The notes beneath the pieces are model-generated. The model saw only the letters and a program-made list of their open reading frames with translations. It was not told the origin of the DNA and ran no database searches. Position numbers and translations under genes: made by a program. Below are positions 6,206-63,241 of a stretch of DNA of 64,000 nt, piece after piece. Every line of letters begins with the position of its first letter. The stretch's first letter is position 1. Source of the DNA: Patescibacteria group bacterium (GTDB lineage: Bacteria > Patescibacteriota > Minisyncoccia > Phycocordibacterales > PALSA-1337); NCBI GenBank assembly GCA_028865095.1, contig JAGWLA010000002.1:49319-113318 (forward strand). The letters are read 5' to 3'.

Positions 6206-6336
6206 AGACTGATTTCCTGCGCTTTCTAGTTTTGTTGTTGTCAAGGAACCTGGCTCGAGGCGTCTGCCTCGAAGATGACCTGTTTCCTTGCCTGAATTAA
6301 GAATAACACGATTATTTATCAAGGTCAATATATGTA

Positions 6337-6365
6337 TTGACAATGCTCATACCGCGTGCTAATTT
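6337..6365 (+). promoter_or_regulatory. sigma70-like promoter (TTGACA-17 nt-TAATTT) upstream of CDS 6416
   Basis: TTGACA at 6337-6342, 17-nt spacer, TAATTT at 6360-6365. A GAAAGGAA Shine-Dalgarno sits about 8 nt before the ATG at 6416. Confidence 0.45.
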
Positions 6366-10450: not shown

Positions 10451-11314
10451 ATGTACACGACACAACTTTTACCTGTCATGATTAGCAAAAAGATATTATC
10501 GAATGTCGAATCGAAGCCGTATTTCCAAAAAGGCGATTTTGTTCTTTATCATGGGGATTCTTTGAATGTTCTGGCTCAGTTGCCGGAGAATTCTATAGAT
10601 ATGATATTTGCAGATCCGCCATACAACCTTTCAAACGGGGGTTTTAGCGTCCATGCAGGCAAAATGGTTAGTGTGAACAAAGGTGACTGGGACAAGAGTA
10701 AAGGATTCAAGGATGATTATGATTTTCATTATCGCTGGCTGGAGGCTTGTAAGCGCATACTGAAGCCAAATGGAACACTTTGGGTTAGTGGAACGTATCA
10801 TTCCATATATCAATGTGGCCATGCGCTTCAGGCGCTTGGTTATCATATCCTGAATGATATTTCTTGGTTTAAGCCGAATGCTTCACCGAACCTAAGTTGC
10901 AGATTTTTCACTGCAAGCCACGAGACGATCATTTGGGCTAGGAAGGACAAGAAGGGGAAACACACTTTTAACTATGAATGGATGAAGAATAAGGAATGGC
11001 CAAGCGACTTTTTTAAGAATCCTAATAAACAGATGAGGAGTGTTTGGCATATACCAGACGTAGAGGATGTTTGGACTGTCGGTACTCCCAAAAGGGAAGA
11101 GAAAACGTTTGGAAAACATCCTACACAGAAGCCGCTGGAACTTCTCCGTAGGATCGTGCTTGCAAGCACAAATAGGGGTAATATAGTCCTTGACCCATTC
11201 ACTGGCAGTTCGACTACGGGAATAGCCTCGATCATGAATGGTCGAAAGTTTGTCGGTATAGATACTACGAAGGATTTTCTTGAGCTTTCAAAGAAGCGAT
11301 TACTAGAATTATAG
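10451..11314 (+). CDS. type II DNA methyltransferase, beta-class amino-MTase (N6-adenine or N4-cytosine)
   Basis: Motif IV DPPY (IFADPPYNLS) precedes motif I (IVLDPFTGSSTTGIA) in a beta-class permutation. The gene sits in a low-GC (about 40%) segment. Confidence 0.8.
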   Translation: MYTTQLLPVMISKKILSNVESKPYFQKGDFVLYHGDSLNVLAQLPENSIDMIFADPPYNLSNGGFSVHAGKMVSVNKGDWDKSKGFKDDYDFHYRWLEACKRILKPNGTLWVSGTYHSIYQCGHALQALGYHILNDISWFKPNASPNLSCRFFTASHETIIWARKDKKGKHTFNYEWMKNKEWPSDFFKNPNKQMRSVWHIPDVEDVWTVGTPKREEKTFGKHPTQKPLELLRRIVLASTNRGNIVLDPFTGSSTTGIASIMNGRKFVGIDTTKDFLELSKKRLLEL

Positions 11315-11321
11315 AAACAAC

Positions 11322-11843
11322 ATGATCAAAAAAGGAGTTGGAGGAGGAAATACAATAACTGGTCTTCGCTTCGAAAAGAGAGCAAGCATCTTAAAGCTTC
11401 TTAGTAGTCATGAAGGCTATAAAGTAAAAGGTCACATTATCTATTACCAAGGTAATGAAGTAGCGCAAAGTTATAGAAAAAATGGACTATATAAATACCT
11501 CGAATCAAAGGGTGTAGACTACGAAAAATATATATCCAAGAAATTACTTCCCGACGAGGCTATTTATGTGATCAGAAATAACACTCTATTTGTCATAGAG
11601 ATTAAATTCCAGAGTGTTGCAGGCTCGGTCGATGAAAAGCTTCAGACTTGTGACTTCAAGAAAAAGCAATACAAGAAGCTTGTGGCACCACTTAATATCG
11701 ATGCAGAATATATCTATATTCTGAATGATTGGTTTAGGAGACCAGAATATAAAGATGTTCTGGACTATATTATTTCGGTTGGATGCCAGTATTATTTCCA
11801 ATACTTACCATTGGAGAAGATCGGGCTACCAGTCCCAGCCTAA
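11322..11843 (+). CDS. putative type II restriction endonuclease (PD-(D/E)xK fold)
   Basis: Starts 8 nt after the methyltransferase stop, with the same low GC. Candidate PD...ExK motif (LLPDEAIYVIRNNTLFVIEIKFQ). No database check possible. Confidence 0.45.
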   Translation: MIKKGVGGGNTITGLRFEKRASILKLLSSHEGYKVKGHIIYYQGNEVAQSYRKNGLYKYLESKGVDYEKYISKKLLPDEAIYVIRNNTLFVIEIKFQSVAGSVDEKLQTCDFKKKQYKKLVAPLNIDAEYIYILNDWFRRPEYKDVLDYIISVGCQYYFQYLPLEKIGLPVPA

Positions 11844-11862
11844 AGATAATTGTAATAATTTT

Positions 11863-13386
11863 ATGGCTACAAGTTGGAAGGAATGGGAAAATAAAATAGG
11901 AAGAATCTTTAAGAATATTGGTTATACAAAGGTAGATAATATTGATAATTCAATTAATCTACAACCAAGAGAATTCTGTTTAGAGAAGCTGAATCATGAT
12001 ATGCAGGTAGATGTATTTGTCTGTGTTGATAAATCTCAGTGGGTACATATAGAGTGCCGAGATCGGAGGAATCGGACCATAAATGGGTGGCTTCACGAGA
12101 TTAAAGGACGTACTAGCCAACGTCTGACAAAACTAAAGAAAGGATTAAAAATAAAAAATATCAAGGTATTTGGTGTAGCTGCCACATCGCTAAGAGACCT
12201 TGATGGTAAGACCCAGAATGTTGCGGATGATACTGGTGTTGCGCTTTGGCATCACGGAGTAGTGGATTATTTACTTGCTATAACTAAAGGTGCTGGTGGT
12301 CAAGCAGAAGAGCTAGTCTTGAATAGGTGTGGAATTAGGAGAAGTAAGTACTTACCAATAAACATACAAGTTCAACCATGGCCAGGTATATCTGAGTCCT
12401 GGTTTATTGGATACGTATCTCCGCTTCAGATAGCTCACGCGACATTTGTTTATCAACGTGGTAATGGATTTGGAGAATCTGCATATCAGAGATTTCTAAA
12501 ACCACAACGCATTACTGAGATAGCAGACTTTGTTAGAAGTGGTAAATCATTTCCTAATTCAATAGTGATGGCCTTGCCGAAGGGGACCAAGTTGCCAGGC
12601 AGTACCGTAATTAGAGCAAATAATCTAATTACGATTTCGATTCCTGGTGATCCGGAGGGGATCAAGATAATTGATGGTCAGCATAGATTTTTTGGAGCGT
12701 TAGCTTCTGGAATGAACCCGAAGCTTTTGTGCACATTTGTTCAATCTGAAGATCTAGATCAAGCGATCATGTTCGCGAAGATTAACGGTAAACAGGTTAG
12801 TGTTAGTAAGAGCCAATTGATCTCACTATTTTCAATTCCGAATTTTGCAGCAAAGATAGCAGCAGGATACTCAGAAAGAGATCATTTGAAGATTGAACGG
12901 GAGGACACGGTATATAGGGCACTCCAAAGAATGAACCAGAAAGGATTATTTGCTCACAAATTTAATTTTATCTCAGGTAGGCCTTCCAAGGACACGATAC
13001 CGTTTAAATTTATATTTGACACTCTTATGTCACTATGGAATGTTGAGCCGTCCGGACTTGTCACTCTATCAGGGACTACGCAGGAAAAAGGAAAAGTCTT
13101 AGGGGACCGCTTAACATCCTTTTTGTCTGCTTGGGGAAAAGTACTTGGAAAGGAACGCCTTATGGATAGTCAGATATGGTTGCAGCCAACCATGCTAAGT
13201 GCACTAATTAAGACGTATCCAGACTGTAGATGGAATGCTGGGAAAAAGGATGTTGATTCTTGGCTTAAGCGGAGAGGGAAAATATCGTGGATACCTAAAC
13301 CAGAATCTTATCGCGGTGGTTCAGGGGCCTCGACTTTATCAAAGCTGCTATGTAGGAAAATAGGTATCAAGTCACAGTATATTTAG
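11863..13386 (+). CDS. DGQHR-domain (DndB/DpdB-like, ParB/Srx-fold) protein with a ~240-aa N-terminal extension
   Basis: IIDGQHRFFGA motif, preceded by FPNSIVMALPKG, which is typical of the start of the DGQHR/DndB domain. The N-terminal domain (WENKIGRIFKNIGY...DVFVCVDKSQWVHIECRD) looks like an Mrr/restriction-endonuclease-type fold. Start is 19 nt after the putative endonuclease gene, so the three genes probably form one operon. Confidence 0.55.
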   Translation: MATSWKEWENKIGRIFKNIGYTKVDNIDNSINLQPREFCLEKLNHDMQVDVFVCVDKSQWVHIECRDRRNRTINGWLHEIKGRTSQRLTKLKKGLKIKNIKVFGVAATSLRDLDGKTQNVADDTGVALWHHGVVDYLLAITKGAGGQAEELVLNRCGIRRSKYLPINIQVQPWPGISESWFIGYVSPLQIAHATFVYQRGNGFGESAYQRFLKPQRITEIADFVRSGKSFPNSIVMALPKGTKLPGSTVIRANNLITISIPGDPEGIKIIDGQHRFFGALASGMNPKLLCTFVQSEDLDQAIMFAKINGKQVSVSKSQLISLFSIPNFAAKIAAGYSERDHLKIEREDTVYRALQRMNQKGLFAHKFNFISGRPSKDTIPFKFIFDTLMSLWNVEPSGLVTLSGTTQEKGKVLGDRLTSFLSAWGKVLGKERLMDSQIWLQPTMLSALIKTYPDCRWNAGKKDVDSWLKRRGKISWIPKPESYRGGSGASTLSKLLCRKIGIKSQYI

Positions 13387-13395
13387 TATCCACAG

Positions 13396-13893
13396 TTGAA
13401 ATACATGTCCACCGCCAAATCGACACGCTACAGCCCGGAGAGCTTCTTGAAGGGGAAGATAGGGGAATTCGTCTTCGAGGAGATGTTCCGCAGGGCGGGG
13501 AGATTCACGGTCCTGCCATTCGGCTATGAGAAGACCCTGCCGGAGGTGGCTCAAAGGGTCGACCACGTGAGGTACAAGCATATCCTCGAGAATATAAGGA
13601 GCGCGCCGGATTTCGTCATCATCTCCCATGACGCCGCTAACGTCTATATGGTCGAAGTCAAATACCGCACCACCAAGACGGCCGAGGAGATGCTCGAGAT
13701 CGCCAAGGGCATCCAGAAGCGCTGGACCGCCATATGGGTATTCCTGGCCACGCCCGACGGATTCTATTTCGACTCTTGCACCGATATCGTCAAGAATGGG
13801 GGAGCCATGGCGCGGCTCAATACCGGCTGGGTCGATGAGGAGACGCAGAGGGAGTTCGGGGAGTTGCTGAGGAAGTTTGTGCCGGGAAAGTAG
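13396..13893 (+). CDS. PD-(D/E)xK nuclease-fold protein (Hjc/restriction-endonuclease-like)
   Basis: GEFVFEEMFRRAGRFTVLPFGYEK...APDFVIISHDAANVYMVEVKYR resembles the Hjc/NucS-type G...PD...(E)VK core. Confidence 0.4.
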   Translation: MKYMSTAKSTRYSPESFLKGKIGEFVFEEMFRRAGRFTVLPFGYEKTLPEVAQRVDHVRYKHILENIRSAPDFVIISHDAANVYMVEVKYRTTKTAEEMLEIAKGIQKRWTAIWVFLATPDGFYFDSCTDIVKNGGAMARLNTGWVDEETQREFGELLRKFVPGK

Positions 13894-13918
13894 ATCTGCT
13901 CTGTGTTATTCTTTTGTA

Positions 13919-14422
13919 ATGACCCTGATTTCCACCTGGAAAGATCCCGACGGACACATGGTGCGCTTCGAATATGAGGATGCGGATGATTTCAGCATGC
14001 TGGACAAGAGCAAATGCCGCCAAGTGTATGGCGTCTGCTTCTGTGATGGCAAACTGGTCATAGGCCGCGGCGGGCGCAAGGGGGATTGGGGCCTCATAGG
14101 CGGGACCATAGAGCCTGGAGAGACATTCGAGGAGACTCTGAAGCGCGAGGTTCAAGAAGAGTCCAATATGGAGGTCCTTACCGCCAAACCAATCGGATAT
14201 CAGAAGGCTGTCGATACCCGTGACGGTTCATGGGTATACCAACTCCGTTATGTTTGTCGAGTGCAGCCGTATGGTCCGTTCACCGGCGATCCTGATGGTG
14301 GCAGTATACAGGAGATCAAGCTCATAGATCCCGCCGACTATCGCACATACTTCGATTGGGGAGAGACCGGTGAACGGATGATACATAGATCGATCGAGTC
14401 GATTGAAAGATTATCAAAATAA
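13919..14422 (+). CDS. NUDIX hydrolase
   Basis: Nudix box GGTIEPGETFEETLKREVQEESNMEV (Gx5Ex7REUxEExGU). Start placed at MTLISTW. Confidence 0.7.
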   Translation: MTLISTWKDPDGHMVRFEYEDADDFSMLDKSKCRQVYGVCFCDGKLVIGRGGRKGDWGLIGGTIEPGETFEETLKREVQEESNMEVLTAKPIGYQKAVDTRDGSWVYQLRYVCRVQPYGPFTGDPDGGSIQEIKLIDPADYRTYFDWGETGERMIHRSIESIERLSK

Positions 14423-30373: not shown

Positions 30374-30892
30374 ATGCAAAATAAAATAGCTCTTGGAGTC
30401 GACATCGGCAATGTCATCATCGACAATCGCTCGGTCGATCCGGAAGCAAAAAAAGTCGATGAAGCGACCTATGCGTCATTCCCTCCGACCAGGGGCGTAT
30501 TTGAGGCGCTAAAATCTCTCAACAGCTACTTCCAAGGCGATGTCTATCTCATCTCGAAATGCACCGAATGGGCGCAGGAGCAGATCTTGCTCTGGCTCAA
30601 GGATCACGATTTCTATGCCAGGACAGGCATCAAACCGGAGAACGTCTTCTTTGTCCGGCAGCGCCACGAAAAAGACGGCGTGTGCCGTAAGCTAGGATTG
30701 ACGCATTTCATCGACGATCGCCTTGAAGTGCTCGGCCACATGGTCGGCTCGACTCCGAACCTGATATTATTCCAGCCCGACGACGAAGAAGTCCGGGAGT
30801 TCGAACGGTTCTTGCCCAAGGTCTCTGTCGCCCGAGATTGGGATGAAGCCATGAGAAAGATCGAGAAAGAACATGATATCATATCTCCATGA
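30374..30892 (+). CDS. hypothetical protein, paralog B of the tandem pair
   Basis: VDIGNVII, HDFYARTGIKPENV, RHEKDGVCRKLG, FIDDRLEV. About 30% identical by eye to paralog A. Confidence 0.35.
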   Translation: MQNKIALGVDIGNVIIDNRSVDPEAKKVDEATYASFPPTRGVFEALKSLNSYFQGDVYLISKCTEWAQEQILLWLKDHDFYARTGIKPENVFFVRQRHEKDGVCRKLGLTHFIDDRLEVLGHMVGSTPNLILFQPDDEEVREFERFLPKVSVARDWDEAMRKIEKEHDIISP

Positions 30893-31959
30893 AAGACCTC
30901 TTCACCAGGTCGGCGGCGAACCCGATCATCACGCCGGATAGCTCCGGCTGGTGGAAGATCTATAACCCCGGCGCGGCGCTCGACGGACAGGGCGCTGTCC
31001 ACCTCTTCCCGCGCGCGGTCAAGAAAGAGGCCGATTGGCATTCGCGGATCCTTCATGCCGTCTCCCGCGACGGAGTGCGTTTCGAGCTGGACAAAGAGCC
31101 TGTCTTCGAAAGGATAGGGGAGAGCGAGCTCCGCGGGCTGGAGGATCCTCGGGTGACCTTCCTCGACGGCATCTACCACATCGTCTTCGCCGCATATGAC
31201 GGGGCGAGGGTCTTGCTCCATAGCGCGACCGCGCCGGCGCTCGAAGGCCCGTGGCAGCGCCGCGGCGCGATGCTCCCCGATTTCGATTTCTTCAAGAACG
31301 GCGGCAAGATGGTGGAATGGAAGGACGGCAAGCCCGTTGCCAAGACCCATACCAAGAGTGGCTCGGTCTGGAACAAATCAGGAGCGCTTTTCCCGGAGAA
31401 GATCGGCGGCAAGCCCACGCTCATCTTCGGCGAATATCATATGTGGCTCGCCGGCTCCGACGATGGCTTCCGCTATGAAGCCGATCCGACGCCGATCTTG
31501 ACGCCCCGCACCGGGACGCGTTATTTCGACAATACTTTCATCGAGATGGGGCCGCCGCCGATGCTGACCGACAAGGGGTGGCTGGTCTTGTATCATGGGA
31601 TCGACGAGGCGTTCCGCTATCAGCTCGGCTTCGTCATCCTCGACAGGCATGACGTACGGAAAGTCTTATATAGGACCGACGAGCCTATTTTCGGCCCGAA
31701 AGAGCCGTATGAGATGGGGGATGCCCTGATCGACGTCATCAAGGGCGGTATAACGGCCATGAGCGCGATGGACGACGAGCAGCTTAAGGAGTTCTATAAA
31801 ACGGCCAGGAATGAGAACGTCATGCCCCAAGTGACGTTCTGTCCCGGGGCAGTGGTCAAAGACGAGATGCTCTGGCTTTACTATGGCGCCGGCGACACAT
31901 CGATCTGCATGGCTCACGCGCCGCTCCAGAAGCTACTGGACATGGTCCCCGCCGTCTAG
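30889..31959 (+). CDS. glycoside hydrolase family 130 (beta-mannoside phosphorylase-like, DUF377)
   Basis: GH130-type beta-propeller motifs (NPIITPD, NPGA, EDPRV, YHIVFAAYDG, WLVLYHG, YQLGFVILD, YYGAGDT). Confidence 0.7.
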   Translation: MKDLFTRSAANPIITPDSSGWWKIYNPGAALDGQGAVHLFPRAVKKEADWHSRILHAVSRDGVRFELDKEPVFERIGESELRGLEDPRVTFLDGIYHIVFAAYDGARVLLHSATAPALEGPWQRRGAMLPDFDFFKNGGKMVEWKDGKPVAKTHTKSGSVWNKSGALFPEKIGGKPTLIFGEYHMWLAGSDDGFRYEADPTPILTPRTGTRYFDNTFIEMGPPPMLTDKGWLVLYHGIDEAFRYQLGFVILDRHDVRKVLYRTDEPIFGPKEPYEMGDALIDVIKGGITAMSAMDDEQLKEFYKTARNENVMPQVTFCPGAVVKDEMLWLYYGAGDTSICMAHAPLQKLLDMVPAV

Positions 31960-35859: not shown

Positions 35860-36810
35860 ATGGAACTCGTAAGGGGCTTCAGTCAGCTTACGAAATCCGA
35901 CTCTGACATAGCCGGCGGGAAAGGTGCGTCTCTGGGCGAGATGACCGCCGCCGGGATACCCGTGCCGCCCGGCTTCGTCGTGCTGTCGGCCTCATTCGAG
36001 CGGTTCATCGAAGAGACCGGTCTGACGCAGGAGATCGACGCGGCATTGCATGCGGTCGACCACAAGGAGATCCATACCGTCGAGAACGCTTCCGAGAGGA
36101 TCCAGGCCCTGATCCTCGCGGCCGAGATGCCGAAGGACATAGCCTCCGAGATCGAGAAGGCATTCAAGGGATTGGGCGCGCCCTATGTGGCGGTCCGCTC
36201 GTCCGCGACCGCCGAAGACTCTTCCATGGCCGCGTGGGCCGGGCAGCTTGACAGCTATCTGAATACGACGGAAAAGGACCTGCTCGAGAAAGTGAAGCGC
36301 TGCTGGGCATCGCTGTTCACGCCGCGCGCCATCTTCTATCGCTTCGAGAAAGGTCTGCACGCGGCCAAGATCTCCGTGGCCGTCGTCGTCCAGAAGATGG
36401 TCGCCTCGGAGAAGTCCGGCATCGCCTTCTCTGTCCATCCGGTGACAGAAGACCACAACCAGCTCATCATCGAAGCGGGCTTCGGCCTCGGTGAAGCTAT
36501 CGTCTCCGGCCAGATAACGCCGGATAGCTATGTGGTGGAGAAAAAGCCGAGAAGGATCGTGGATATCAGCGTCTCCGAGCAGACGAAAGGGCTCTTCAGG
36601 CGGGACGGCGGCGGGAACGAATGGAAGGGGCTGGGCAAGCTCGGCGCCTCGCAAGTCTTGGATGAGGCCGCGATCCTGGATCTAGCGGAGCTCGTGGTGA
36701 AGATAGAGAGGCATTACGGCTTTCCCTGCGACATCGAATGGGCATACGAGGACGGGAGATTCTACATCGTCCAGAGCAGGCCGATCACGACGCTGCAAAA
36801 GAAACAATGA
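35860..36810 (+). CDS. PEP-synthase/PPDK-type N-terminal ATP-grasp (nucleotide-binding) domain protein, stand-alone
   Basis: PPDK_N-like start (DIAGGKGASLGEMTAAGIPVPPGFVV), AVRSSATAEDSSMAAWAGQ, ATP-grasp body to the C-terminus (DIEWAYEDGRFYIVQSRPIT). No swivel His domain in this ORF. Stop overlaps the next start (ATGA). Confidence 0.7.
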   Translation: MELVRGFSQLTKSDSDIAGGKGASLGEMTAAGIPVPPGFVVLSASFERFIEETGLTQEIDAALHAVDHKEIHTVENASERIQALILAAEMPKDIASEIEKAFKGLGAPYVAVRSSATAEDSSMAAWAGQLDSYLNTTEKDLLEKVKRCWASLFTPRAIFYRFEKGLHAAKISVAVVVQKMVASEKSGIAFSVHPVTEDHNQLIIEAGFGLGEAIVSGQITPDSYVVEKKPRRIVDISVSEQTKGLFRRDGGGNEWKGLGKLGASQVLDEAAILDLAELVVKIERHYGFPCDIEWAYEDGRFYIVQSRPITTLQKKQ

Positions 36811-37835
36811 GGCTTCTTCTGACCAAATCTTTCTCCCGGGAGCACTCGCTCTTCTACTGCTACGTCTGGAACGATAGCGACATGATTGGACTTCCGAAAT
36901 ACGCCGACATGAGCCCGAACTCGCTCTTCCAAGGCGAGGGCAGAGGGAAGAGATTATCGGTCTGGTACAACCAGGCGGAATTGGATATGTTGTTCGGAAA
37001 TATCGAGAAGAAGATAAGCGCTGATCCTCGATATTTTGCGAATGCTAAAAGCGAATTCTACAAATGGTGGGATCTGCTCCTTCCTTACATAAAGAAAGAG
37101 AAGAAGATCGGATCGATAGACTGTATTGAAGATTTTTATGACATATTTGTGAAATGGTGGTCGCCCATGGCCTCGATCATATATATCCCTGATATGAAGG
37201 ACGCACCGGAGGATATCAAAAAGGAAGCTTTCAAGATCCGCGACGAGACCCAGCATTATTCAGATGATGGCGATAGGCTCTTCATTGAATTCTTCCTTGC
37301 ACATTACCCGGAATATACGGACATCGCTTATGTGATATCTCCAACAGAGGTATTTTCGCTCAAGGATGGGCCTTTGAGCCAGCAAGCTCTAGCCGAGATC
37401 AGAAAAAGGCTAGACGGATACATCGTGCACAAAGGGAAGCTGTACCTTGCAAGCGAACTGGACAAAGTCCTTGAAGCCAATAAGCTCGAATTAGAGAAGC
37501 CTAAAACCGAGGATTTGAAAGAGATAAAAGGCGTGCCGGCTAGCAAAGGCAAAGCGAAAGGACCCATCAAGCTCGTCCTTTACAAAGAGCAGATAAAGAC
37601 AGTGAAAGAAGGCGATATACTCGTCACAGAGATGACGTCTCCGGATTTTGTGCCTGCCATGAAGAGATCGGCAGCCATCATTACCGACGAAGGCGGGATA
37701 ACTTGTCATGCTGCTATTGCCTCAAGGGAACTTGGAAAACCATGCATCATAGGTACCAAAATCGCTACGCAGGTCTTCAAGGACGGCGACCTGGTCGAAG
37801 TGGATGCGGACAGAGGGCTGGTAAGGAAGATTTAA
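36807..37835 (+). CDS. phosphotransferase subunit: unknown about 240-aa substrate-type domain plus C-terminal PEP-utilising-enzyme mobile (phospho-His swivel) domain
   Basis: C-terminal motif LVTEMTSPDFVPAMKRSAAIITDEGGITCHAAIASRELGKPCIIG matches the GGxTSHAAI[IV]ARE swivel-His domain with the catalytic His retained. The N-terminal domain (REHSLFYCYVWNDSD...WYNQAELD...) is unassigned. Lower GC than the flanks. Confidence 0.65.
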   Translation: MRLLLTKSFSREHSLFYCYVWNDSDMIGLPKYADMSPNSLFQGEGRGKRLSVWYNQAELDMLFGNIEKKISADPRYFANAKSEFYKWWDLLLPYIKKEKKIGSIDCIEDFYDIFVKWWSPMASIIYIPDMKDAPEDIKKEAFKIRDETQHYSDDGDRLFIEFFLAHYPEYTDIAYVISPTEVFSLKDGPLSQQALAEIRKRLDGYIVHKGKLYLASELDKVLEANKLELEKPKTEDLKEIKGVPASKGKAKGPIKLVLYKEQIKTVKEGDILVTEMTSPDFVPAMKRSAAIITDEGGITCHAAIASRELGKPCIIGTKIATQVFKDGDLVEVDADRGLVRKI

Positions 37836-37863
37836 AGCGGCCCATTAGGGTATAATCTATCCA

Positions 37864-38910
37864 ATGCGCAGGAAGAGGAATCTAGAGAAAGCCTATACGC
37901 GGGAGCACTCGCTCTTCTATTGCATGGCCTGGAGCGAATCCGACAGGTTCTCGAAGGGGTGGGGAGACGCCGGTTCGCTGTCATTGTTCATCGGGGAAGG
38001 CGCATCGAAGAAGATATCGGTGTGGTATGACCAGCGGGAGCTCGACGAGTATTACGAAGCTTTTGCCAAGAGGTTCCGGGACGAGCCGGGCCGCTTCTCT
38101 TCGATGAGAGAAGATTTCCGCGCCTATTGGGCCGAATGGCTCGATCTCATCCGTGGCACGAAGAGGATCGAGACCGTGGACGATCTCGAGCATATGTATC
38201 ATCTGTATATAAGATGGTGGACGATCACCTCAGATTTCTATTGCGTGCCCGAATTGCCTGGCGCGCCGGCTTCTTCGAAGAGAGACGCGATGAAGATACG
38301 GGAAGAGACCCAGGAATATACGGAATTCGGGGACGACGCCTTCCGTTCCTTCATCGCCTCCAAGTTCCCGGAATATTCCCGGCTGGCGTACGTCATGGCC
38401 CCGCAAGAGGCTTTCTTGCTCAAATACAGGAGATTGCGTCCGCGGGAAGTGTCCGAGATCGAGAGCAGGCTCGGCGGCTATGCGATCATCGACAGCCAGA
38501 TCTATCCCAAAGCCGGCCTGAAGCGGCTGGCGCGCGAATATGATTTCGAGCTGAAGCCTGTCACGGCGGCCCGGAAAGGCGCGATCAAAGGCAGTCCGGC
38601 GTCCAAAGGCCGCGCGACCGGCAGGGTAAGGCTGCTCCTCTTCAAGGACCAGCTCCCGCGGTTCAAGGAAGGGGAAGTCCTCGTGACCGAGATGACCTCC
38701 CCCGACTTCGTCCCGGCCATGAAGAAGGCGGCGGCCATCGTCACCGACGAAGGCGGGATAACCTGTCATGCCGCCATCGCTTCCCGCGAGCTCGGCAAGC
38801 CCTGCGTCATCGGCACAAAAACGGCTACGCAGATCCTGAAGGACGGCGACCTGGTCGAAGTGGATGCGGATGGGGGAGTGGTGAGGGTCATGAGCTGGAC
38901 GAGTCTTTAG
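37864..38910 (+). CDS. paralogous phosphotransferase subunit (unknown N-terminal domain plus PEP-utilising His swivel domain)
   Basis: Same architecture and colinear motifs as 36807-37835 (REHSLFYCMAWSESD, WYDQRELDEYY, VTEMTSPDFVPAMKKAAAIVTDEGGITCHAAIASRELGKPCVIG) but high GC. Confidence 0.65.
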   Translation: MRRKRNLEKAYTREHSLFYCMAWSESDRFSKGWGDAGSLSLFIGEGASKKISVWYDQRELDEYYEAFAKRFRDEPGRFSSMREDFRAYWAEWLDLIRGTKRIETVDDLEHMYHLYIRWWTITSDFYCVPELPGAPASSKRDAMKIREETQEYTEFGDDAFRSFIASKFPEYSRLAYVMAPQEAFLLKYRRLRPREVSEIESRLGGYAIIDSQIYPKAGLKRLAREYDFELKPVTAARKGAIKGSPASKGRATGRVRLLLFKDQLPRFKEGEVLVTEMTSPDFVPAMKKAAAIVTDEGGITCHAAIASRELGKPCVIGTKTATQILKDGDLVEVDADGGVVRVMSWTSL

Positions 38911-56018: not shown

Positions 56019-56021
56019 CCT

Positions 56022-56145
56022 CAGAGGAAGAAATGCCCTCTCAGAATCAGAACAGCCCCTGCAGGGGCTGTTCTTCGTCCTCGACGATTCCCTGCTGGAA
56101 ATCGTCTGCGGATGTTCTTCAAGGGCGTTTCTTCCTCTGAGGCTG
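56022..56145 (+). repeat. 16-bp perfect inverted repeat (GCCTCAGAGGAAGAAA / TTTCTTCCTCTGAGGC) enclosing a GC-rich palindromic hairpin
   Basis: Outer arms at 56022-56037 and 56130-56145. Inner hairpin AACAGCCCCTG/CAGGGGCTGTT at about 56055-56076. Located between gyrA and the methyltransferase gene. Confidence 0.35.
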
Positions 56146-56201: not shown

Positions 56202-56720
56202 ATGTTCTCCGATCCTGCCGCGAATATCGCCAAGCTCGGCCTCGCCGAAGGCATGAAAGTGGCCGATCTCGGAGCCGGCTCCGGCTTCTATGCCATCGAG
56301 GCGGCCAAGAAAGTCGGGGCGAGCGGCCGGGTCTATGCCGTCGACGTCCAGAAGGACCTGCTCGAGCGCCTGCGCTCCGCCGCCCAGGCGGCAGGCCTCC
56401 ACAACGTCGAAGTCGTCTGGGGCAACGCCGAGAAGATCGGCGGCACCAAGCTGCGCGAAGGGGCGGCCGACCGGGCCATCGTCTCCAACGTGCTCTTCCA
56501 GGTCGCGGCGCCCGACGACTTCGCCCTCGAAGCCAAGCGCATCCTGAAGCCCGGCGGCAAAGCGCTGGTCGTCGACTGGAGCGAAGCGAGCCCGCTCGGC
56601 CCGAAGACCGTCTTCCCGTCCATGAAGGCCCAAGCCCTCTTCGAGAAGAGCGGCTTCGCGCTCGAGCAGTCGTTCAAGGCGGGCGACCATCATTACGGCC
56701 TCGTATTCACCCGCACATGA
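56202..56720 (+). CDS. class I SAM-dependent methyltransferase
   Basis: SAM-binding motif I (VADLGAGSGFYAIEAA), motif II/III (RVYAVDVQ, IVSNVLFQV). A TGTATAAT -10 element ends 7 nt before the ATG (leaderless-like). Confidence 0.7.
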   Translation: MFSDPAANIAKLGLAEGMKVADLGAGSGFYAIEAAKKVGASGRVYAVDVQKDLLERLRSAAQAAGLHNVEVVWGNAEKIGGTKLREGAADRAIVSNVLFQVAAPDDFALEAKRILKPGGKALVVDWSEASPLGPKTVFPSMKAQALFEKSGFALEQSFKAGDHHYGLVFTRT

Positions 56721-58018
56721 AGATATCCAAGTTCCAGCTCATCGTCCTCATCGCGTTCGTCGCGTTCCTCGTCGTCGGCGTGATCCTCTTCTCGACCTTC
56801 AAGAACAATTCGACGTCGTCGCAGCTCCCCGCCATCACCATCTGGGGCACGTTCCCGAAGGCGACGTTCGACCAATATGTGGCGACCATCGATACGACTT
56901 CGTCCCAGAGGCTGACGGTCGACTATGTCCAGAAGCAGCCGGCGGCCTTCACCGGCGACTTCATCGCCGCTCTCGCCCGGGGGGCCGGGCCTGACGCTAT
57001 CCTGATCGGCGTCGACCAGCTCCTCTCGAACGAGGACAAGCTGACGCCCATACCGTATTCCGCTTTGCCGCAGCGCACGTTCCTCGATACCTACATCCAG
57101 GAGGGCGACCTCTATCTCGGCCCGAACGGGGCGCTCGGCATACCGTTCGTCGTCGACCCCCTGGTCATGTATTGGAATCGCGACCTCTTCAATTCCGCCG
57201 GCGTGGCGACGCCGCCCGCCACTTGGAACGCTTTCGACCCCTTGATCAAGGCTCTGACCGTCAAAGACTCCAGTGGCACGATATCCCGCAGCGCCGTCGC
57301 CATGGGCGATTTCACCAACGTGGACAATGCCCGAGAGCTCTTCGGGACCCTGCTCATGCAGTCGGGCGACCCGGTGACGTCCGTCGGCTCCGACGGCTCC
57401 ATCAAGAGCGGCCTTTCATCGAGCGCCCGGAGCAGCCCGATCCCCGCCCTCCAGTTCTTCGCCAAGTTCGTCGACCCGTCGAACGCCGACTATTCCTGGA
57501 ACAGGAGCTGGCCCGACTCGAAGACCGCCTTCCTGGCCGGCAATCTCGCGACGTATTTCGGCTTCGCATCCGAGCTCTCCGACATCAAAGCCAAGAACCC
57601 CAATCTCGGCTTCGACGTGGCGGCGCTCCCGCAAGCGAGCTCCGGCGGCGTGGCTGCGACGTATGGCAAGATGTACGGCTTCTCGCTGGTCAAGGCGTCG
57701 AGCAACACGTCCGCCGCGTACCAGGTCATCGCCACTTTGGCGTCGCCGCAGTATCTGTCGTCCCTCGAGAAGCAGCTCTATCTGCCTTCCGTCCTTCGGA
57801 CGAACATCGCCGCCGGGTCGAGCGATCCCTATGTCTCCATCTTCGACAAATCCGCCCTCATCGCCGACGCGTGGCTCGATGCCGACCCCGCCCAGTCCTC
57901 GCAGATATTCGGCGCCATGGTCCAGGCCGTGACGAGCGGCCAGAAGACCGCCGAACAGGCGGTCCGCGACGCGGGAGGCCAGTATGACGCCCTCTTGCAG
58001 AGAGCGCTCCAACAATGA
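56717..58018 (+). CDS. membrane-anchored extracellular solute-binding-protein-like protein
   Basis: N-terminal TM anchor (FQLIVLIAFVAFLVVGVILF) followed by about 400 aa resembling ABC sugar-type substrate-binding proteins (ITIWGTF, PFVVDPLVMYWNRDLF, W-rich). No permease or ATPase genes adjacent. The listed ORF 56195-58018 is a frame chimera. Confidence 0.45.
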   Translation: MKISKFQLIVLIAFVAFLVVGVILFSTFKNNSTSSQLPAITIWGTFPKATFDQYVATIDTTSSQRLTVDYVQKQPAAFTGDFIAALARGAGPDAILIGVDQLLSNEDKLTPIPYSALPQRTFLDTYIQEGDLYLGPNGALGIPFVVDPLVMYWNRDLFNSAGVATPPATWNAFDPLIKALTVKDSSGTISRSAVAMGDFTNVDNARELFGTLLMQSGDPVTSVGSDGSIKSGLSSSARSSPIPALQFFAKFVDPSNADYSWNRSWPDSKTAFLAGNLATYFGFASELSDIKAKNPNLGFDVAALPQASSGGVAATYGKMYGFSLVKASSNTSAAYQVIATLASPQYLSSLEKQLYLPSVLRTNIAAGSSDPYVSIFDKSALIADAWLDADPAQSSQIFGAMVQAVTSGQKTAEQAVRDAGGQYDALLQRALQQ

Positions 58019-58023
58019 CCTTA

Positions 58024-58541
58024 TGAAGAAGACCCGACGGCAAATGCTCGCGTACGCTCTCGCCGCCCTCCTCGCGGCGGGCGCTCCGGCCGCCGCCGCG
58101 CTGGCCCAGAGCTCGACGGTCGGTTCGGGGCAGGTCCAGATCAATCAGGCGCCGACCAATGGCCCGTTCGGGGCTTTCCAGATCGTCCAGTGCGATGGGC
58201 CGACCTTGCCGGGGGACGCCTCTTCGCTGGCTTATCTGGCTTCTTTCAAAGCCCAGACCGGGCGCGACTATGTGCCGTGCGACTTCAAGGGCTTCATGGG
58301 ACAGGTCCAATTCCTGATGAACGTCATGATCGTCCTCGGCGTCCTGGCCGGCATCGGGGTGTCCGCCTATGCCGGCTATCTCTATATCACCGGCACCGAG
58401 AAGAACATATCGAAGGCCAAGGAGATATTCCCAAAACTGGCGTGGGGCTTTATACTTATGCTGACCGCTTGGTTCATCGTCTATCAGATCCTGGTGTGGC
58501 TGACGGGCAGCGGCGGGTATCTGGCCGGCGGCGGGTCGTAA
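58024..58541 (+). CDS. TrbC/VirB2-like secreted pilin-type protein (paralog 1)
   Basis: Sec signal peptide with AxA site (AAALAQ/SS), mature domain with two hydrophobic helices (FLMNVMIVLGVLAGIGVSAYAGYLYI and WGFILMLTAWFIVYQILVWL), Gly-rich tail. Confidence 0.5.
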
Positions 58542-58542
58542 C

Positions 58543-59124
58543 ATGCATCGTATGGATAGCCGATATATCATGACCATAAAGAATACTATGAGAGACAACG
58601 AATCAGGGGCGAACACGCGCCTGGCCCTCTGTCTCGCGTTCGTCGCTGTCTTCGCTCTCAACATGTCGGCGGTCGCTCGCGCCGATACTGCGAACACCGG
58701 GGGACAGCAATCGCCCGCCCCCTCGACGGGCGGGCAACAATCTCCTCCTCCGCCGACCACGGGCCAGCAATCGCAAACGCCTCCGTCGAGCTCGCAAGGT
58801 TCCTTCTACCTCCAGAATCCCTTGAGTAGCCAGTTCAACACCGTCGGCGGCTTGGTGGACGGGTTCATGCAGATCTTCTCGTATCTGGCCGTGCTCTTCG
58901 CGGTCTTCATGCTCATCTGGGTCGGCTTCCAGTTCGTCCTCGCCCAAGGGAAGCCCGACCGCATGAAGGAGCTCAAGAATTGGCTCCTGTATATCGTCAT
59001 CGGGGTGGCGGTCGTCATCGGCGCCCGGATCATCGTGAGCGTGGTCATCAACACCCTTCAGGCCACGGGGACGGTGAACCAAGGGGTCATCACCAACGCC
59101 AACAACGCCCTTAACGGCAATTAA
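58543..59124 (+). CDS. TrbC/VirB2-like pilin-type protein (paralog 2)
   Basis: Signal peptide (LALCLAFVAVFALNMSAVARA/DT), Pro/Gln/Ser-rich spacer with GGQQSP repeats, two TM helices (IFSYLAVLFAVFMLIWVGF and LLYIVIGVAVVIGARIIV). Confidence 0.5.
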   Translation: MHRMDSRYIMTIKNTMRDNESGANTRLALCLAFVAVFALNMSAVARADTANTGGQQSPAPSTGGQQSPPPPTTGQQSQTPPSSSQGSFYLQNPLSSQFNTVGGLVDGFMQIFSYLAVLFAVFMLIWVGFQFVLAQGKPDRMKELKNWLLYIVIGVAVVIGARIIVSVVINTLQATGTVNQGVITNANNALNGN

Positions 59125-59138
59125 CATAGAATAATCAC

Positions 59139-59555
59139 ATGACCATGCCAAAAAAGCCTTTTGCCTTCGCCCTCTCGACGCTCGCGGCGCTGCTGCCGCT
59201 CGCATCGTACGCCCAGACGACCATCCCGCTCGGAGTGACCGTCGCCCCCAGCAACACCAATCCGCAGACGCTCGCCGACGTCATCGGCGTGGTCATCTAC
59301 TATCTGAACGCCGCGCTCGGGCTGATGATGGCCTTCGCCGTGGTCATGTTCGTCTGGTACGTCATCCAGTATTTCATCAAGGCCGACGCCGACCGGAAGG
59401 CGGCGGGGACATACGTCCTCTTCAGCGTCATCGGCTTCTTCGTCATCCTCTCCATCTGGGGCCTCGTCAACATCCTCGGCGGCACCTTCGGCTTGAGCAA
59501 CCAGAGCAATTCGTATCAGACCTGGCAGAGCTTCGGCGGCCTCTTCCCGCGGTGA
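59139..59555 (+). CDS. TrbC/VirB2-like pilin-type protein (paralog 3)
   Basis: Signal peptide (ALLPLASYAQ/TT), two TM helices (VVIYYLNAALGLMMAFAVVMFVWYVI and VLFSVIGFFVILSIWGLVNIL). Confidence 0.5.
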   Translation: MTMPKKPFAFALSTLAALLPLASYAQTTIPLGVTVAPSNTNPQTLADVIGVVIYYLNAALGLMMAFAVVMFVWYVIQYFIKADADRKAAGTYVLFSVIGFFVILSIWGLVNILGGTFGLSNQSNSYQTWQSFGGLFPR

Positions 59556-59668
59556 CGCGCCCGGCGGTAATCCACAGCCGGCCCGGGTAGGGCGCCCCCG
59601 CTCTGGTATAATGGCGGGAGCTCAACGAAGCAGCAACCCTTAGCAGATAACAATAACCATAACTACCA

Positions 59669-60028
59669 ATGAAGAAAGCAATCGCAGCGATCGCCCTCCT
59701 CGCCCCTTCGGCGGCGTTCGCGCAGACCCCTATCAATAACGTCAGCTCGCTCACGGTCACGCTGACCAACATCGGCACGACCGTCATCAGCGTGCTCATC
59801 GCCCTTGGCGTCATCTGGATCGTCTGGAACGCCGTCCAGTTCATCATGAACGCCGACAACGAAGAGAAGCGCAAAGAGAAGGGCCTCGCCATGCTCTGGG
59901 GCATCGTCGGCCTGTTCGTCATCCTCTCCATCTGGGGCCTCGTGGCCATCCTGACCGGCACGTTCACCACGACCGGCAATAATGCTCCGACCGGCCAGTT
60001 CCCGCAGGTCAAGACGTTCGTCCAATAA
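59669..60028 (+). CDS. TrbC/VirB2-like pilin-type protein (paralog 4)
   Basis: Signal peptide (ALLAPSAAFAQ/TP), two TM helices, shares the ILSIWGLV motif with paralog 3. Has its own TGGTATAAT promoter at 59604-59612. Confidence 0.5.
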   Translation: MKKAIAAIALLAPSAAFAQTPINNVSSLTVTLTNIGTTVISVLIALGVIWIVWNAVQFIMNADNEEKRKEKGLAMLWGIVGLFVILSIWGLVAILTGTFTTTGNNAPTGQFPQVKTFVQ

Positions 60029-60039
60029 TCGGAATCGGC

Positions 60040-60318
60040 ATGATCGTTTACGCCGCTTCTTCCATCGATCCCGTCGCTTTCGGGAAGGTCGTCGACCCGA
60101 TCATCGCCAACATCGTCGACCCGATCATCGAGCTCATCTTCGCCGTCGCCCTGATCGCCTTCATATACGGCATCTTGCAGATGGTCACCCACGGGACGGA
60201 TTCCGACGCCCACCAGCGGGGCAGGATGAGCATGCTCTCCGGCGTCATCGGCATGTTCATCATGATGTCGGCCTGGGGCATCATCAATATCGTCGCCGGC
60301 ACGGTTGGGCAGTTCTAA
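60040..60318 (+). CDS. pilin-core-like small membrane protein (paralog 5, no signal peptide)
   Basis: Two hydrophobic helices (IIELIFAVALIAFIYGILQMV and SGVIGMFIMMSAWGIINIVAG) matching the mature-domain pattern of the four preceding genes. Confidence 0.4.
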   Translation: MIVYAASSIDPVAFGKVVDPIIANIVDPIIELIFAVALIAFIYGILQMVTHGTDSDAHQRGRMSMLSGVIGMFIMMSAWGIINIVAGTVGQF

Positions 60319-60330
60319 GGGGCGCGGATC

Positions 60331-60370
60331 GATATAAAAACAAGCCGCGGGAGTTATGCTCCTGCGGCTT
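60331..60370. terminator. 12-bp-stem hairpin between convergent genes (terminator for the minus-strand gene, possibly bidirectional)
   Basis: AAGCCGCGGGAG-TTATG-CTCCTGCGGCTT. On the minus strand it is followed by GTTTTTAT. Confidence 0.45.
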
Positions 60371-60401
60371 GGTGCGTGCGATCTTCGCCATTGCTCGATA
60401 G

Positions 60402-60855: not shown

Positions 60856-62100
60856 CTATCCTCTCTTTGTTCTGTTGGGATCGACTTGTGTGACGTTGAT
60901 GCCCTGGCCTGTTATGACCTGTTCCACCTTCCCGTCCTCCTCGAGATTCTCTTGGAAGGATTGGTTGCGGAGGTCGGTGACCGTAGGCTTCGGGCCGGTC
61001 TGGTCAGCAGGAACGATGATGTTCCCGTGAGCGTCCCTGACGCCGTTCCAATACAGGTCCGCCCGCAGGGCGATCTGCTGGTTCAGCGTTTCGGTGTTGA
61101 TGACTTCGGAGCGGCGCTTTGCCAAGCGGACCATGACCTCTGTCCTTGCTTTGACGAGCTCGGGCGGAGGTATGGGTATGACCTGGAACTTCCTGAAGGC
61201 GATCCCCGTGCCGCGCGTATCGTCGAGCTCGCTGTTCCGGATCTCCCCATTTGCGCCTTTCCGTCCGATGATGAGAGGGAACAGCGTATTTGCGATCTCG
61301 GGTCCGCCTCTTTCCAATTGATCACCGGTCATCCCGTTGGCGATCCGCTGTACCCACGTGGTGAGGATGCCGTCGAGCTGTTTGATGACTCCCGGCATGC
61401 GCCCGACGTTGGCGAAGTCTCTCAGCTTCTGTCCCCCGGACTTCCAATCTGGAGTGCCGGGGAGATCGTCATTCGCATCCGGTATGATGCTTGTGTTGAA
61501 TATGACGTTAGGGAAGTAGACATCGTCTACTGTCCTTATCGGCTTCTGCATGTTGAAGTCGTGGTCGATCTTCTCGAGCACGATCTCCCGGTATCCGATG
61601 ATCCGCAGCCCCGGGATCCAGTCGAATAGCAGCGTCACGCTGCTCACTTTCGTGGCTGTCATCTGGCCGAAGAAGGTTATCAGCCACACTCTCGTGGGCT
61701 CTTCTTCTTTCGGCCACTTGATGCCGCGCAACATGATGATGCCTGCCATGAGGGGGAATAAGCCCCACCACTCGAGGTGGTAGAGCGAATACCCGCCCCA
61801 TCCGATGCCTCCTATCACGATGGCCAGCAGCGTCCCGCTATACGGGTTCAGCATGCTGGGCCATGGATTGAGCCTGTGCGACCAATATGTCGCAAAGGCC
61901 AGGACCTGCTGTGCGGCTTGGTGCCATCTCCGCAGCTCCTCGCTGATCTGTCGTGCGGCTTCGTGCCACTCCGACAGCTCGTCTCTGATCTGCTGCATGG
62001 CGCAACGCCACTTCAGCAGCTCCTCTCGTATCTTGTTCATACCGTCCTCAATTGTTGTAGCCCCCTGAAAGGGAAGCGATTGTTGTGTCGTTGATGTCAA
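60856..62100 (-). CDS. membrane protein with N-terminal heptad repeats and SPFH/band-7-like C-terminal region
   Basis: N-terminal repeated ELLKWR/ELSEWH/ELRRWH units encoded by DNA repeats at about 61880-62040. Two TM helices (LLAIVIGGIGWGGYSLY and LFPLMAGIIML). SPFH-like segment (VDDVYFPNVIFNTSIIPD...ARTEVMVRLAKRRSEV). Confidence 0.4.
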   Translation of the reverse strand: MTSTTQQSLPFQGATTIEDGMNKIREELLKWRCAMQQIRDELSEWHEAARQISEELRRWHQAAQQVLAFATYWSHRLNPWPSMLNPYSGTLLAIVIGGIGWGGYSLYHLEWWGLFPLMAGIIMLRGIKWPKEEEPTRVWLITFFGQMTATKVSSVTLLFDWIPGLRIIGYREIVLEKIDHDFNMQKPIRTVDDVYFPNVIFNTSIIPDANDDLPGTPDWKSGGQKLRDFANVGRMPGVIKQLDGILTTWVQRIANGMTGDQLERGGPEIANTLFPLIIGRKGANGEIRNSELDDTRGTGIAFRKFQVIPIPPPELVKARTEVMVRLAKRRSEVINTETLNQQIALRADLYWNGVRDAHGNIIVPADQTGPKPTVTDLRNQSFQENLEEDGKVEQVITGQGINVTQVDPNRTKRG

Positions 62101-62245: not shown

Positions 62246-63241
62246 TCACTTGAGAAGGATCTGGTTCTTCTCTGCAGGGATAGCGTTTGTGATGTCGTGC
62301 AGGCTGCCGGGAGGGGCCTCGGGGATCTCGTAGCGATTGATCACCATTGGCCCATAGACATTGACGTTCGTGGATCCTGTGATCGTCACGTCGCCCATGT
62401 TCATATTGCTCCCGATCATCATGGCTTTGACAGAGTTGTGATTCGTAAGCGAGCCCATCGTCATGTCCCAATTCGTCGAGACAAGCGGTGCTTTTGGCAC
62501 GGCCTGGGTCTGAACCGCTTTGGGATCGCTGACAGGCTGCTTTCCGACGATGCGGCCGCTGAAGGCGTGCCAGATCGCAAAGCATCCAGTCAAGAACACT
62601 AATACGATGACAGCCACGATGACCGCGATCCGTATCCAGCCCCCTTTCGGAGACTGCGACTGGACCGTTGTCGGCGCATGAGGCGGCGCCGCTGCCGGCG
62701 GGGCTCCTGTCGGAGCTGCCGGTTGCGCTGCTGCCGGTGGCGGTGGCGCTGTCGGCGCCCCCGTGCCGGTAGCTGCCGGTCCCGTTGAAGGGGCTGGCGG
62801 CGTCGCGGCCGGCGGAGGCGTAGCCGAAGGCGCTGTCGCAGCAGGCGGCGTTTGGGGCGCCGCTGGCGCTGTCACAACAGGCGTTGCGACAGGCGCTGAA
62901 GGCTGTGCCGCAGGCGCGGGGGACGGGGGAATAGGAGGAGTATAAGGCACGACCGAGAATTTGGTCATACCCGACTTGCCGACAGTAAATGATGCTTGCA
63001 CTGGCGGACCATCGTTTTTGTCGTCGCTGGCCGTTACGGTCAGCTTGTAGTCGCCTGGGTGATCCTTAAGGTCTCCAAGGTCGACACTGCAGCTCTCCGT
63101 ATTTCCCCGGCCCATCTCGTTGTTCTGGCTATCAACGACGATGAACTCGAAGTTCTTTGCCGCCGGGTTCTTTTTCCACGTCACGCTGCATTTGTTGCTG
63201 GAGCATTTAAGCCCCTCGATCATGAGGTCATTCTTTTTCAT
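62246..63241 (-). CDS. hypothetical bitopic protein with Ig-like N-terminal domain and Pro/Ala/Thr-rich linker
   Basis: N-terminal beta-rich domain, about 90-aa PAPT low-complexity spacer, single TM helix (IRIAVIVAVIVLVFLTGCFAIW), C-terminal domain. Lower GC than the genome. Confidence 0.4.
   Translation of the reverse strand: MKKNDLMIEGLKCSSNKCSVTWKKNPAAKNFEFIVVDSQNNEMGRGNTESCSVDLGDLKDHPGDYKLTVTASDDKNDGPPVQASFTVGKSGMTKFSVVPYTPPIPPSPAPAAQPSAPVATPVVTAPAAPQTPPAATAPSATPPPAATPPAPSTGPAATGTGAPTAPPPPAAAQPAAPTGAPPAAAPPHAPTTVQSQSPKGGWIRIAVIVAVIVLVFLTGCFAIWHAFSGRIVGKQPVSDPKAVQTQAVPKAPLVSTNWDMTMGSLTNHNSVKAMMIGSNMNMGDVTITGSTNVNVYGPMVINRYEIPEAPPGSLHDITNAIPAEKNQILLK

Follow-up and report, generated by a model that had tools for sequence, protein, structure and literature searches.

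Which system is served by a row of five small, mutually related membrane-protein genes that stand in housekeeping chromosomal DNA with no gene for a type IV secretion system (T4SS) close by? This is the question raised by a 64,000-nucleotide stretch of a Patescibacteria (Paceibacteria-type) metagenome-assembled genome (MAG; assembly GCA_028865095.1, contig JAGWLA010000002.1, positions 49,319 to 113,318), the whole of which is termed the window below. The five genes, designated pil1 to pil5, are successive + strand open reading frames (ORFs) spanning positions 58023-60318 in the ORF list of the window. They encode homologous proteins that belong to the T4SS-pilin family, and they close a seven-gene module, headed by genes for a methyltransferase and a solute-binding protein (SBP), whose gene order is conserved in ~80 species. 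On balance, the products of this module probably contribute to a T4SS-assembled surface structure that recognises glycans. The window itself is housekeeping chromosome, comprising gyrB, gyrA, genes for penicillin-binding proteins, MurE, class I lysyl-tRNA synthetase, phenylalanyl-tRNA synthetase, RNase R, FtsZ, FtsA and signal peptidase I, and others.

An earlier note, made from the letters of the window, had described five neighbouring genes on one strand, starting at 58024 and encoding proteins of 119-193 residues. The tandem same-strand arrangement stands, while the first ATG lies at 58023 and the products measure 92-193 residues. All five ORFs display the high third-position GC content typical of real genes, in a genome of ~62% GC. 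Later starts are possible for pil2, at 58570 or 58588, and an alternative upstream ATG of pil1, at 57984, would run into the preceding gene. Signal peptides, called from hydropathy and the -3/-1 rule, are present in pil1, pil2, pil3 and pil4, where the hydrophobic N-terminal segment ends at AALAQ/S, AVARA/D, ASYAQ/T and AAFAQ/T, respectively. Two strong transmembrane (TM) segments with a charged loop between them were identified by hydropathy in all five proteins, and Gly, Asn, Thr and Ser abound in the C-terminal tails. The pil5 protein consists of the two TM segments only, as do its orthologues (median length 96 aa), and inspection of the ORF revealed no in-frame upstream start able to add a signal peptide. 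Hydropathy and translation thus bear out the architecture proposed in the earlier note, namely Sec signal peptides with AxA-like sites in four proteins and none in the fifth, and two hydrophobic helices followed by a Gly/Asn/Thr-rich tail. The GGQQSP-repeat spacer mentioned there is also present, at residues 52-84 of pil2; it is a repeat at the protein level only, no DNA tandem repeat being detected by Tandem Repeats Finder (TRF), and neither Rfam nor TRF gave a match in the array region. The pil1 protein of the window carries a 65-residue ectodomain with two conserved Cys. Pairwise identity among the five window paralogs is 21-43%, with pil3 and pil4 sharing 43%. In the NCBI database, pil4 is identical to MDE2037964.1, annotated as hypothetical, and the SBP encoded upstream is identical to MDE2037960.1. 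The AlphaFold2 model of pil4 comprises a leader helix and a helix-loop-helix hairpin extending from residues 25 to 60 (H25-60) and from 65 to 99 (H65-99), with a mean predicted local distance difference test (pLDDT) score of 76.

Profile searches place these proteins among T4SS pilins. With Pfam PF18895 (T4SS_pilin; gathering threshold of 26.6 bits), pil1 to pil5 scored 19.5, 38.6, 28.3, 37.5 and 37.8 bits, respectively, four of the five thus exceeding the threshold, and the matches cover roughly 75-97% of the profile. With Pfam PF04956 (TrbC/VirB2; gathering threshold of 27.9 bits), pil2 reached 27.6 bits (E 3.5e-6), just short of the threshold, and pil4 reached 20.4 bits; because of this borderline score, the proteins are filed as VirB2-like and not as TrbC/VirB2 members. 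In NCBIfam, pil4 was the sole protein to pass the curated cutoff (40 bits) of NF045849, the Mbov_0395 family pilin-like conjugal transfer protein, with 46.1 bits; pil2, pil3 and pil5 remained below it (26.1, 20.6 and 18.1 bits, respectively) and pil1 gave no match. Hidden Markov models (HMMs) built from the orthologues at each position cross-match all five window ORFs and no other ORF of the window, the pil1 orthologue HMM matching pil2 at 2.9e-7, and hhalign comparison of the pil2 and pil4 profiles gave a probability of 96.8% (E 2.8e-10). With four to five consecutive matches in a Patescibacteria genome, pil1 to pil5 fall within the published definition of a patescibacterial VirB2 array, that is, at least two tandem genes matching PF18895 or PF04956 with E < 0.001 and >50% profile coverage (PMC12102498). 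A type IV (PilA-type) pilin, which would have a class III prepilin leader (G/F or M, with E5), one hydrophobic helix at the N terminus and then a globular domain, was ruled out by the Sec leaders with AxA-like sites and by the two TM helices, and no Pfam family of pilins or of the type II secretion system was found. The view taken in the earlier note, that the proteins are TrbC/VirB2-like and not PilA-type, is therefore backed by three profile libraries and by the AlphaFold2 hairpin; the note had itself suggested a search with T4SS-pilin HMMs, which returned PF18895 for four of five proteins and NF045849 for pil4, and a structure prediction, which returned the helix-loop-helix hairpin.

The relatives of the array were sampled as 80 loci from GTDB species genomes, scanned with pil4 orthologues, all of which are labelled Paceibacteria, Taylorbacteria or Parcubacteria-type MAGs. 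Assignment of ORFs by best hit revealed the same order nearly everywhere: (gyrA), methyltransferase, SBP_bac_1 protein and pil1 to pil5. All five pilin types are found in 55 of the 80 loci and at least four types in 74. In all 64 loci with enough upstream DNA, the gene that immediately precedes the pilins is that of the SBP, and 57 of these loci have the methyltransferase gene upstream. Median intergenic gaps within the module are 3-9 nt, except for ~93 nt ahead of pil4; in the window, the methyltransferase stop overlaps the SBP start (ATGA) and the gap between SBP and pil1 is 4 nt. A sixth pilin-like gene, nearest to pil4, occurs just upstream of the methyltransferase gene and divergent from it, on the - strand, in loci L017, L048, L049, L059, L066, L068 and L075, and the pil4-type gene is duplicated within the array in several further loci. 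The coordinates of the module and of its regulatory elements and borders are collected in Table 1.

The SBP points to the kind of ligand that may be involved. Among solved structures, it is closest to CpMnBP1, a manno-oligosaccharide-binding protein (PDB code 4r9f; E 3.6e-14). In five related loci (one containing Ns) and in three database proteins, one ORF of 561-696 aa encodes both SBP and pil1. For one such fusion, P0152, AlphaFold2 predicted a TM helix, a confidently modelled SBP fold, ~65 residues of disordered linker and a C-terminal helical hairpin, the pil1 part being made of helices H505-540 and H543-578; the best PDB matches of its SBP fold are manno-, malto- and cello-oligosaccharide binders. 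In other contigs carrying the module, the domain borne by pil1 is Laminin_G_3 (ConA-like lectin) or fn3, or else a large ectodomain without assignment, and pil2 is also extended in some of them. These SBP, lectin and FN3 fusions mark the first pilin as the bearer of binding domains that lie outside the cell and in most cases bind carbohydrate. Elsewhere in the window, positions 30889-31956 encode a GH130 beta-1,4-mannooligosaccharide phosphorylase, a gene of note because the closest solved relative of the SBP binds manno-oligosaccharides.

Two predicted promoters with a common upstream box drive the module, P1 transcribing the methyltransferase, SBP, pil1, pil2 and pil3 genes and P2, in the pil3-pil4 gap, transcribing pil4 and pil5. 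The consensus TWATCCACA is found 29-32 nt upstream of the P2 -10 element in 61 sequences, and the pil3-pil4 gap is unstructured in RNA folding (z = +0.8). Since the ATG of the methyltransferase gene lies exactly 6 nt past the P1 -10 hexamer in 32 of 37 loci, its mRNA should be leaderless, and conserved as such. In 1.16 Mb of loci there are 123 occurrences of the composite pattern of box and -10 element, compared with ~14 in shuffles; 65 of them precede pil4 and ~40 the methyltransferase gene, and in the 64-kb window the pattern is found twice, at the P1 and P2 sites only. The box was rejected as a general promoter feature, as ~105 of the 123 occurrences stand ahead of one of these two genes, leaving a number near the shuffle expectation of 14. 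A DnaA box as the sole explanation is weakened by the methyltransferase promoter, which has TTGTCCCCA, a poor DnaA-box fit. A consensus promoter scan recovered neither P1 nor P2, because both are without a canonical -35 element, and they were found by genome comparison. The internal promoter that the earlier note had placed at 59604 is therefore real in the sense of being conserved ahead of pil4 in ~60 related genomes, while the independent regulation of paralogs that it was taken to suggest is not favoured, as the box shared with the first promoter of the operon points to co-regulation. In one lineage (L086 6462-7877 and L087 107-1522), genes for a sigma factor of the extracytoplasmic function (ECF) type and for an unassigned 242-aa protein lie directly upstream of the module and could act as a local regulator.

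Table 1. Position of the genes, predicted promoter elements and hairpins of the pilin module in the window.
Feature	Position	Strand	Description
GC-rich hairpin after gyrA	56049-56074	+	Fold of 56019-56100: 11-bp stem, z = -2.8; likely upstream boundary of the transcription unit
Upstream box of promoter P1	56152-56159	+	TGTCCCCA; tTGTCC(C/A)CA-N29-33-TATAAT before the methyltransferase gene in 37/67 related loci
-10 hexamer of P1	56190-56195	+	TATAAT, 6 nt ahead of ATG 56202; TATAAT-N6-ATG in 32/37 loci
Methyltransferase gene	56202-56720	+	172 aa; class I S-adenosylmethionine (SAM)-dependent; first gene of the module; NCBIfam and Pfam methyltransferase matches
SBP gene	56717-58018	+	433 aa; membrane-anchored extracellular SBP, SBP_bac_1/SBP_bac_8, oligosaccharide-binding type (Pfam; N-terminal membrane anchor)
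pil1	58023-58541	+	172 aa; most divergent pilin-like paralog; signal peptide, ectodomain, two-TM hairpin
pil2	58543-59124	+	193 aa; signal peptide, low-complexity GGQQSP spacer, hairpin
Spacer in pil2	58696-58794	+	GGQQSP-like, Pro/Gln-rich; residues 52-84 (translation)
pil3	59139-59555	+	138 aa; short pilin with signal peptide
Upstream box of promoter P2	59568-59576	+	TAATCCACA; resembles DnaA box; sole consensus match in the window
Extended -10 of internal promoter P2	59604-59612	+	TGGTATAAT; conserved; lies in the sole long intergenic gap of the cluster (median 93 nt)
pil4	59669-60028	+	119 aa; most conserved pilin; signal peptide
pil5	60040-60318	+	92 aa; short pilin without signal peptide
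Hairpin between convergent pil5 and 150-aa ORF	60341-60371		14-bp GC-rich stem, -43.6 kcal/mol, z = -5.5; likely terminator

The reading considered likely, a glycan-recognising surface structure assembled by a T4SS, would involve the following steps. The pil1 to pil4 proteins would enter the membrane through the Sec pathway, with cleavage by signal peptidase I; pil5 would insert without a leader. Each of the five would form a helical hairpin there, its two ends facing outwards and its basic loop inwards. A chromosomal VirB4 T4SS of the Gram-positive type (MPF-FATA-like), encoded elsewhere, would extract the pilins and build from them, by polymerisation, a filament at the surface or an extension of the channel. 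The bulk subunit would be pil4, whose conservation is highest and which is preceded by a separate promoter, with pil3 and pil5 in support. The N-terminal extensions of pil1 and pil2 would be displayed on the outside and pil1 would hold the sugar-binding SBP head, through which the structure may recognise host-cell glycans for attachment or nutrient capture. A more elaborate version is conceivable but rather doubtful: a modular VirB2-type filament in which pil1 carries exchangeable glycan-recognising heads (SBP, separate or fused, ConA-like lectin or FN3), used by Paceibacteria to find, hold or tap hosts, with one dedicated factor switching on both promoters through the T(G/A)TCC(C/A)CA box. 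This factor might possibly be DnaA, as the pil4 box is a near-perfect DnaA box.

Several results weigh against assembly of these proteins by a T4SS. The PF18895 score of pil1 is under the threshold. Foldseek comparison of the pil4 model with the PDB returned generic helical hairpins only, none at E <= 0.001, and did not separate this hairpin from others of helical type, and profile searches with pil4 and pil2 against PDB sequences returned nothing meaningful, no solved structure being matched. As the earlier note had stated for VirB4, VirB6 and VirD4 in the window, profile searches identified neither these nor any other T4SS family in a set of 38 larger ORFs drawn from the window beyond the array and its downstream flank, and tblastn with the VirB4 of Pontibacillus, a monoderm, and with its neighbours aligned with pilins only, in the window and in all 80 loci. 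Clustering of the large flanking ORFs within 10 kb around the array in the 80 relatives revealed no VirB4-like group; the clusters comprise SMC, IF-2, ClpB, tRNA synthetases and variable surface proteins. With no T4SS gene near the array, support for a T4SS link comes from family homology and from the literature for other lineages. Finally, Table S1 of PMC12102498 lists VirB4 as 'No' for the module-bearing C7867-002, an entry that is uninformative since just 206 coding sequences are annotated.

The same table lists VirB4 as 'Yes' for two module-bearing genomes, GCA_001821055.1 (L030) and GCA_001822575.1 (L070). A further connection is provided by the Pontibacillus plasmid NZ_CP062975.1 (L083), which carries two tandem pilin homologues (11779-12691 of that locus; one of the two is annotated as pilin-like) located 4 kb upstream of genes for a VirB4-like CD1110 ATPase and a peptidoglycan hydrolase. 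A Pontibacillus pilin-like gene identified pil2 by tblastn with an E of 5e-9, genes at the pil2 position align in many related loci, and pil2 is the paralog nearest to the pilin-like proteins of Firmicute conjugation clusters. In tblastn searches against plasmids, pil4 gave no match and the core of pil2 gave one weak match, which led to the Pontibacillus locus. These homologues in a VirB4 cluster tie the family to T4SS loci of the Gram-positive type. We infer, as a plausible arrangement, that a distant T4SS assembles the pil proteins. Tandem pilin-like genes are present in the Pontibacillus VirB4 cluster although reviews describe Gram-positive T4SSs as being without VirB2 homologues. In 4-6 of the 80 loci (L055 6247-7383, L049 14858-15922 and others), the 10 kb that follow the module include genes whose N-terminal sequences resemble ATPases and platform proteins of type IV pili or of the type II secretion system (GspE/PilB-like and PilC/GspF-like).

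The alternative that survives best dispenses with a T4SS altogether: in such a membrane complex the SBP would pass host-derived oligosaccharide to a channel or receptor made of the five two-TM pilin homologues, which would replace the missing ABC permease. The SBP accompanies the pilins without exception and in some genomes forms one protein with pil1, it resembles manno-, malto- and cello-oligosaccharide binders, and the window encodes the GH130 mannoside phosphorylase. Moreover, the cluster does not contain an SBP-dependent ABC importer, as it holds the methyltransferase, SBP and pilin genes only, with no permease or ATPase gene alongside; the same applies to its 10-kb surroundings, where T4SS genes are equally lacking, and the sole ABC protein found in the window (7411-8985) is soluble and comprises two ATPase (ABC_tran) stretches. 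The proposal is nevertheless unlikely. The protein family is otherwise tied to conjugation and T4SS loci, no known transporter is made of VirB2-like hairpins, the lectin and FN3 heads found on pil1 elsewhere suit adhesion better than transport, and VirB4 is present in two module-bearing genomes.

Variation of surface antigens, which had been suggested in the earlier note, or of host range would require the five paralogs to act as exchangeable major pilins that are switched on in turn from separate promoters, an arrangement proposed for the VirB2 paralogs of Bartonella and Anaplasma; the idea was raised for Patescibacteria arrays in PMC12102498. The divergence of the paralogs within the genome, the existence of an internal promoter and the differences between genomes in the N-terminal ectodomains of pil1 and pil2 are consistent with this proposal. 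However, every pilin type has a same-position orthologue in ~80 species, and orthologues are more alike (38-53% identity across species, highest for pil4 with a mean of 53%) than are the paralogs of the window. Architecture also depends on position, with the ectodomain in pil1, the spacer in pil2 and the absence of a signal peptide in pil5. These identities indicate old, specialised paralogs and not recently diversified copies. There are, in addition, just two promoters, with one common upstream box, and neither recent duplicates nor DNA repeats are found. With five ancient types, orthologous across species and kept in order, antigenic variation is not favoured and appears very improbable. That the likeness to pilins arose by chance in unrelated small hydrophobic membrane proteins, or marks the remnant of an integrated conjugative element, is already largely refuted and scarcely credible: short two-TM proteins readily yield weak profile matches, the pil1 score for PF18895 and the TrbC scores are under threshold and the fold search is uninformative, but four separate PF18895 matches over threshold in a row, the NF045849 match over its cutoff and the hhalign probability stand against coincidence, while a recent mobile-element remnant is excluded by the housekeeping chromosomal DNA beside gyrA, a GC content equal to that of the flanks and conservation in ~80 genomes.

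Beyond the module, the - strand gene at 60856-62100 encodes a 414-aa protein without a family match, which is kept just downstream of pil5 in ~15 related loci. Kinship with the SPFH/Band 7 protein of the window (4349-6343) was considered, and comparison revealed the two to be unrelated. A convergent gene at 62246-63241 (- strand) encodes a Pro-rich membrane-anchored protein with a strongly variable N-terminal domain; its counterparts, located ~2 kb downstream of pil5 in many loci, measure 460-990 aa and are barely alignable, and its position resembles a hypervariable surface-protein slot adjoining the pilin module. Two other regions of the window are distinctive. Positions 10000-14000 form a low-GC island (GC 0.40-0.45 versus ~0.62 elsewhere) with genes for an N6/N4 DNA methylase (10451-11311) and for a protein with a weak DndB-like match (11725-13383), and probably represent an acquired restriction-modification or defence island. 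In the region 35860-38907, the domains of a pyruvate phosphate dikinase (PPDK)/phosphoenolpyruvate (PEP)-utilising enzyme are divided between ORFs, PPDK_N being encoded at 35860-36807 and the PEP-utilizers mobile domain at 37864-38907; either the gene is fragmented or the enzyme is of an unusual, split type.

Patescibacteria, whose way of life is attachment to other microbes, represent a large part of bacterial diversity, and the patescibacterial T4SS with its pilin series is essential in the one species tested. The fixed parts of the present module, namely the sugar-binding head and the pilin that carries a head, a core of three short pilins, the methyltransferase and the common promoter box, yield specific testable hypotheses on the glycan recognised, the bulk pilin and the factor controlling expression, and provide a marker for comparative genomics of Paceibacteria. 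If the glycan-recognising pilus is real, an ABC-type SBP would for the first time be seen to serve as a pilus adhesin, and the module would give a functional handle on the enigmatic patescibacterial T4SS; if the pilin-like proteins work without a T4SS, they would represent a new use of the VirB2 fold.

The closest known systems are the VirB2-like arrays of Patescibacteria themselves. VirB2-like pilins were described in 1,948 Patescibacteria assemblies, including 441 arrays of 2-11 pilin genes with ~25% identity within arrays (Quinonero-Coronel et al. 2025, PMC12102498), and the pilin series of the T4SS locus of Southlakia epibionticum is essential (Wang et al. 2023, PMC10633639), a point taken up again in a 2025 review. 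The literature (also PMC12857230) thus agrees with the statement of the earlier note that such arrays are reported in lineages of the candidate phyla radiation (CPR), and a feature of this kind is already known. The window array has in common with the published ones the PF18895/PF04956-type family, the phylum, tandem divergent genes (roughly 25% identity), a chromosomal location and a context without relaxase. In contrast, it is not beside virB4, it comprises five fixed orthologous types in conserved order, and the module adds the SBP and methyltransferase genes upstream, a head-carrying pil1 and two promoters with a common box. The seven-gene module, with its five-type cassette, SBP, methyltransferase, head-bearing pil1 and common box, seems to have no mention in the papers searched.

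Likeness to the TrbC/VirB2 pilins of Gram-negative T4SSs (PF04956; T-pilus and F-pilus TraA) extends to the Sec signal, two helices, basic loop, small size and predicted hairpin, whereas the window proteins score just under the family threshold, the host is a monoderm and no VirB5, VirB6 or VirB4 is encoded nearby. The NF045849 family, found in the integrative conjugative element of Mycoplasma and in Firmicute conjugation clusters, is shared through pil4, which exceeds its cutoff, and through the Pontibacillus tandem pair, which aligns with pil2-position genes; those members, in contrast, reside in mobile conjugation clusters, while the window genes lie in housekeeping chromosome, with an SBP gene present and an ATPase gene absent nearby. 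A FimH-type tip adhesin consists of a lectin domain and a pilin domain. By analogy, the SBP-, Laminin_G_3- and fn3-pil1 proteins may be likened to FimH-like adhesins in presenting a carbohydrate-binding head, a linker and a pilin module at the cluster end, although the pilin fold and the assembly pathway are unrelated. Finally, the tandem VirB2 paralogs of Bartonella and Anaplasma, which are thought to serve immune evasion (cited in PMC12102498), share with the array the presence of several tandem VirB2-type genes, while the paralogs of the window are old, position-specific and conserved across species.

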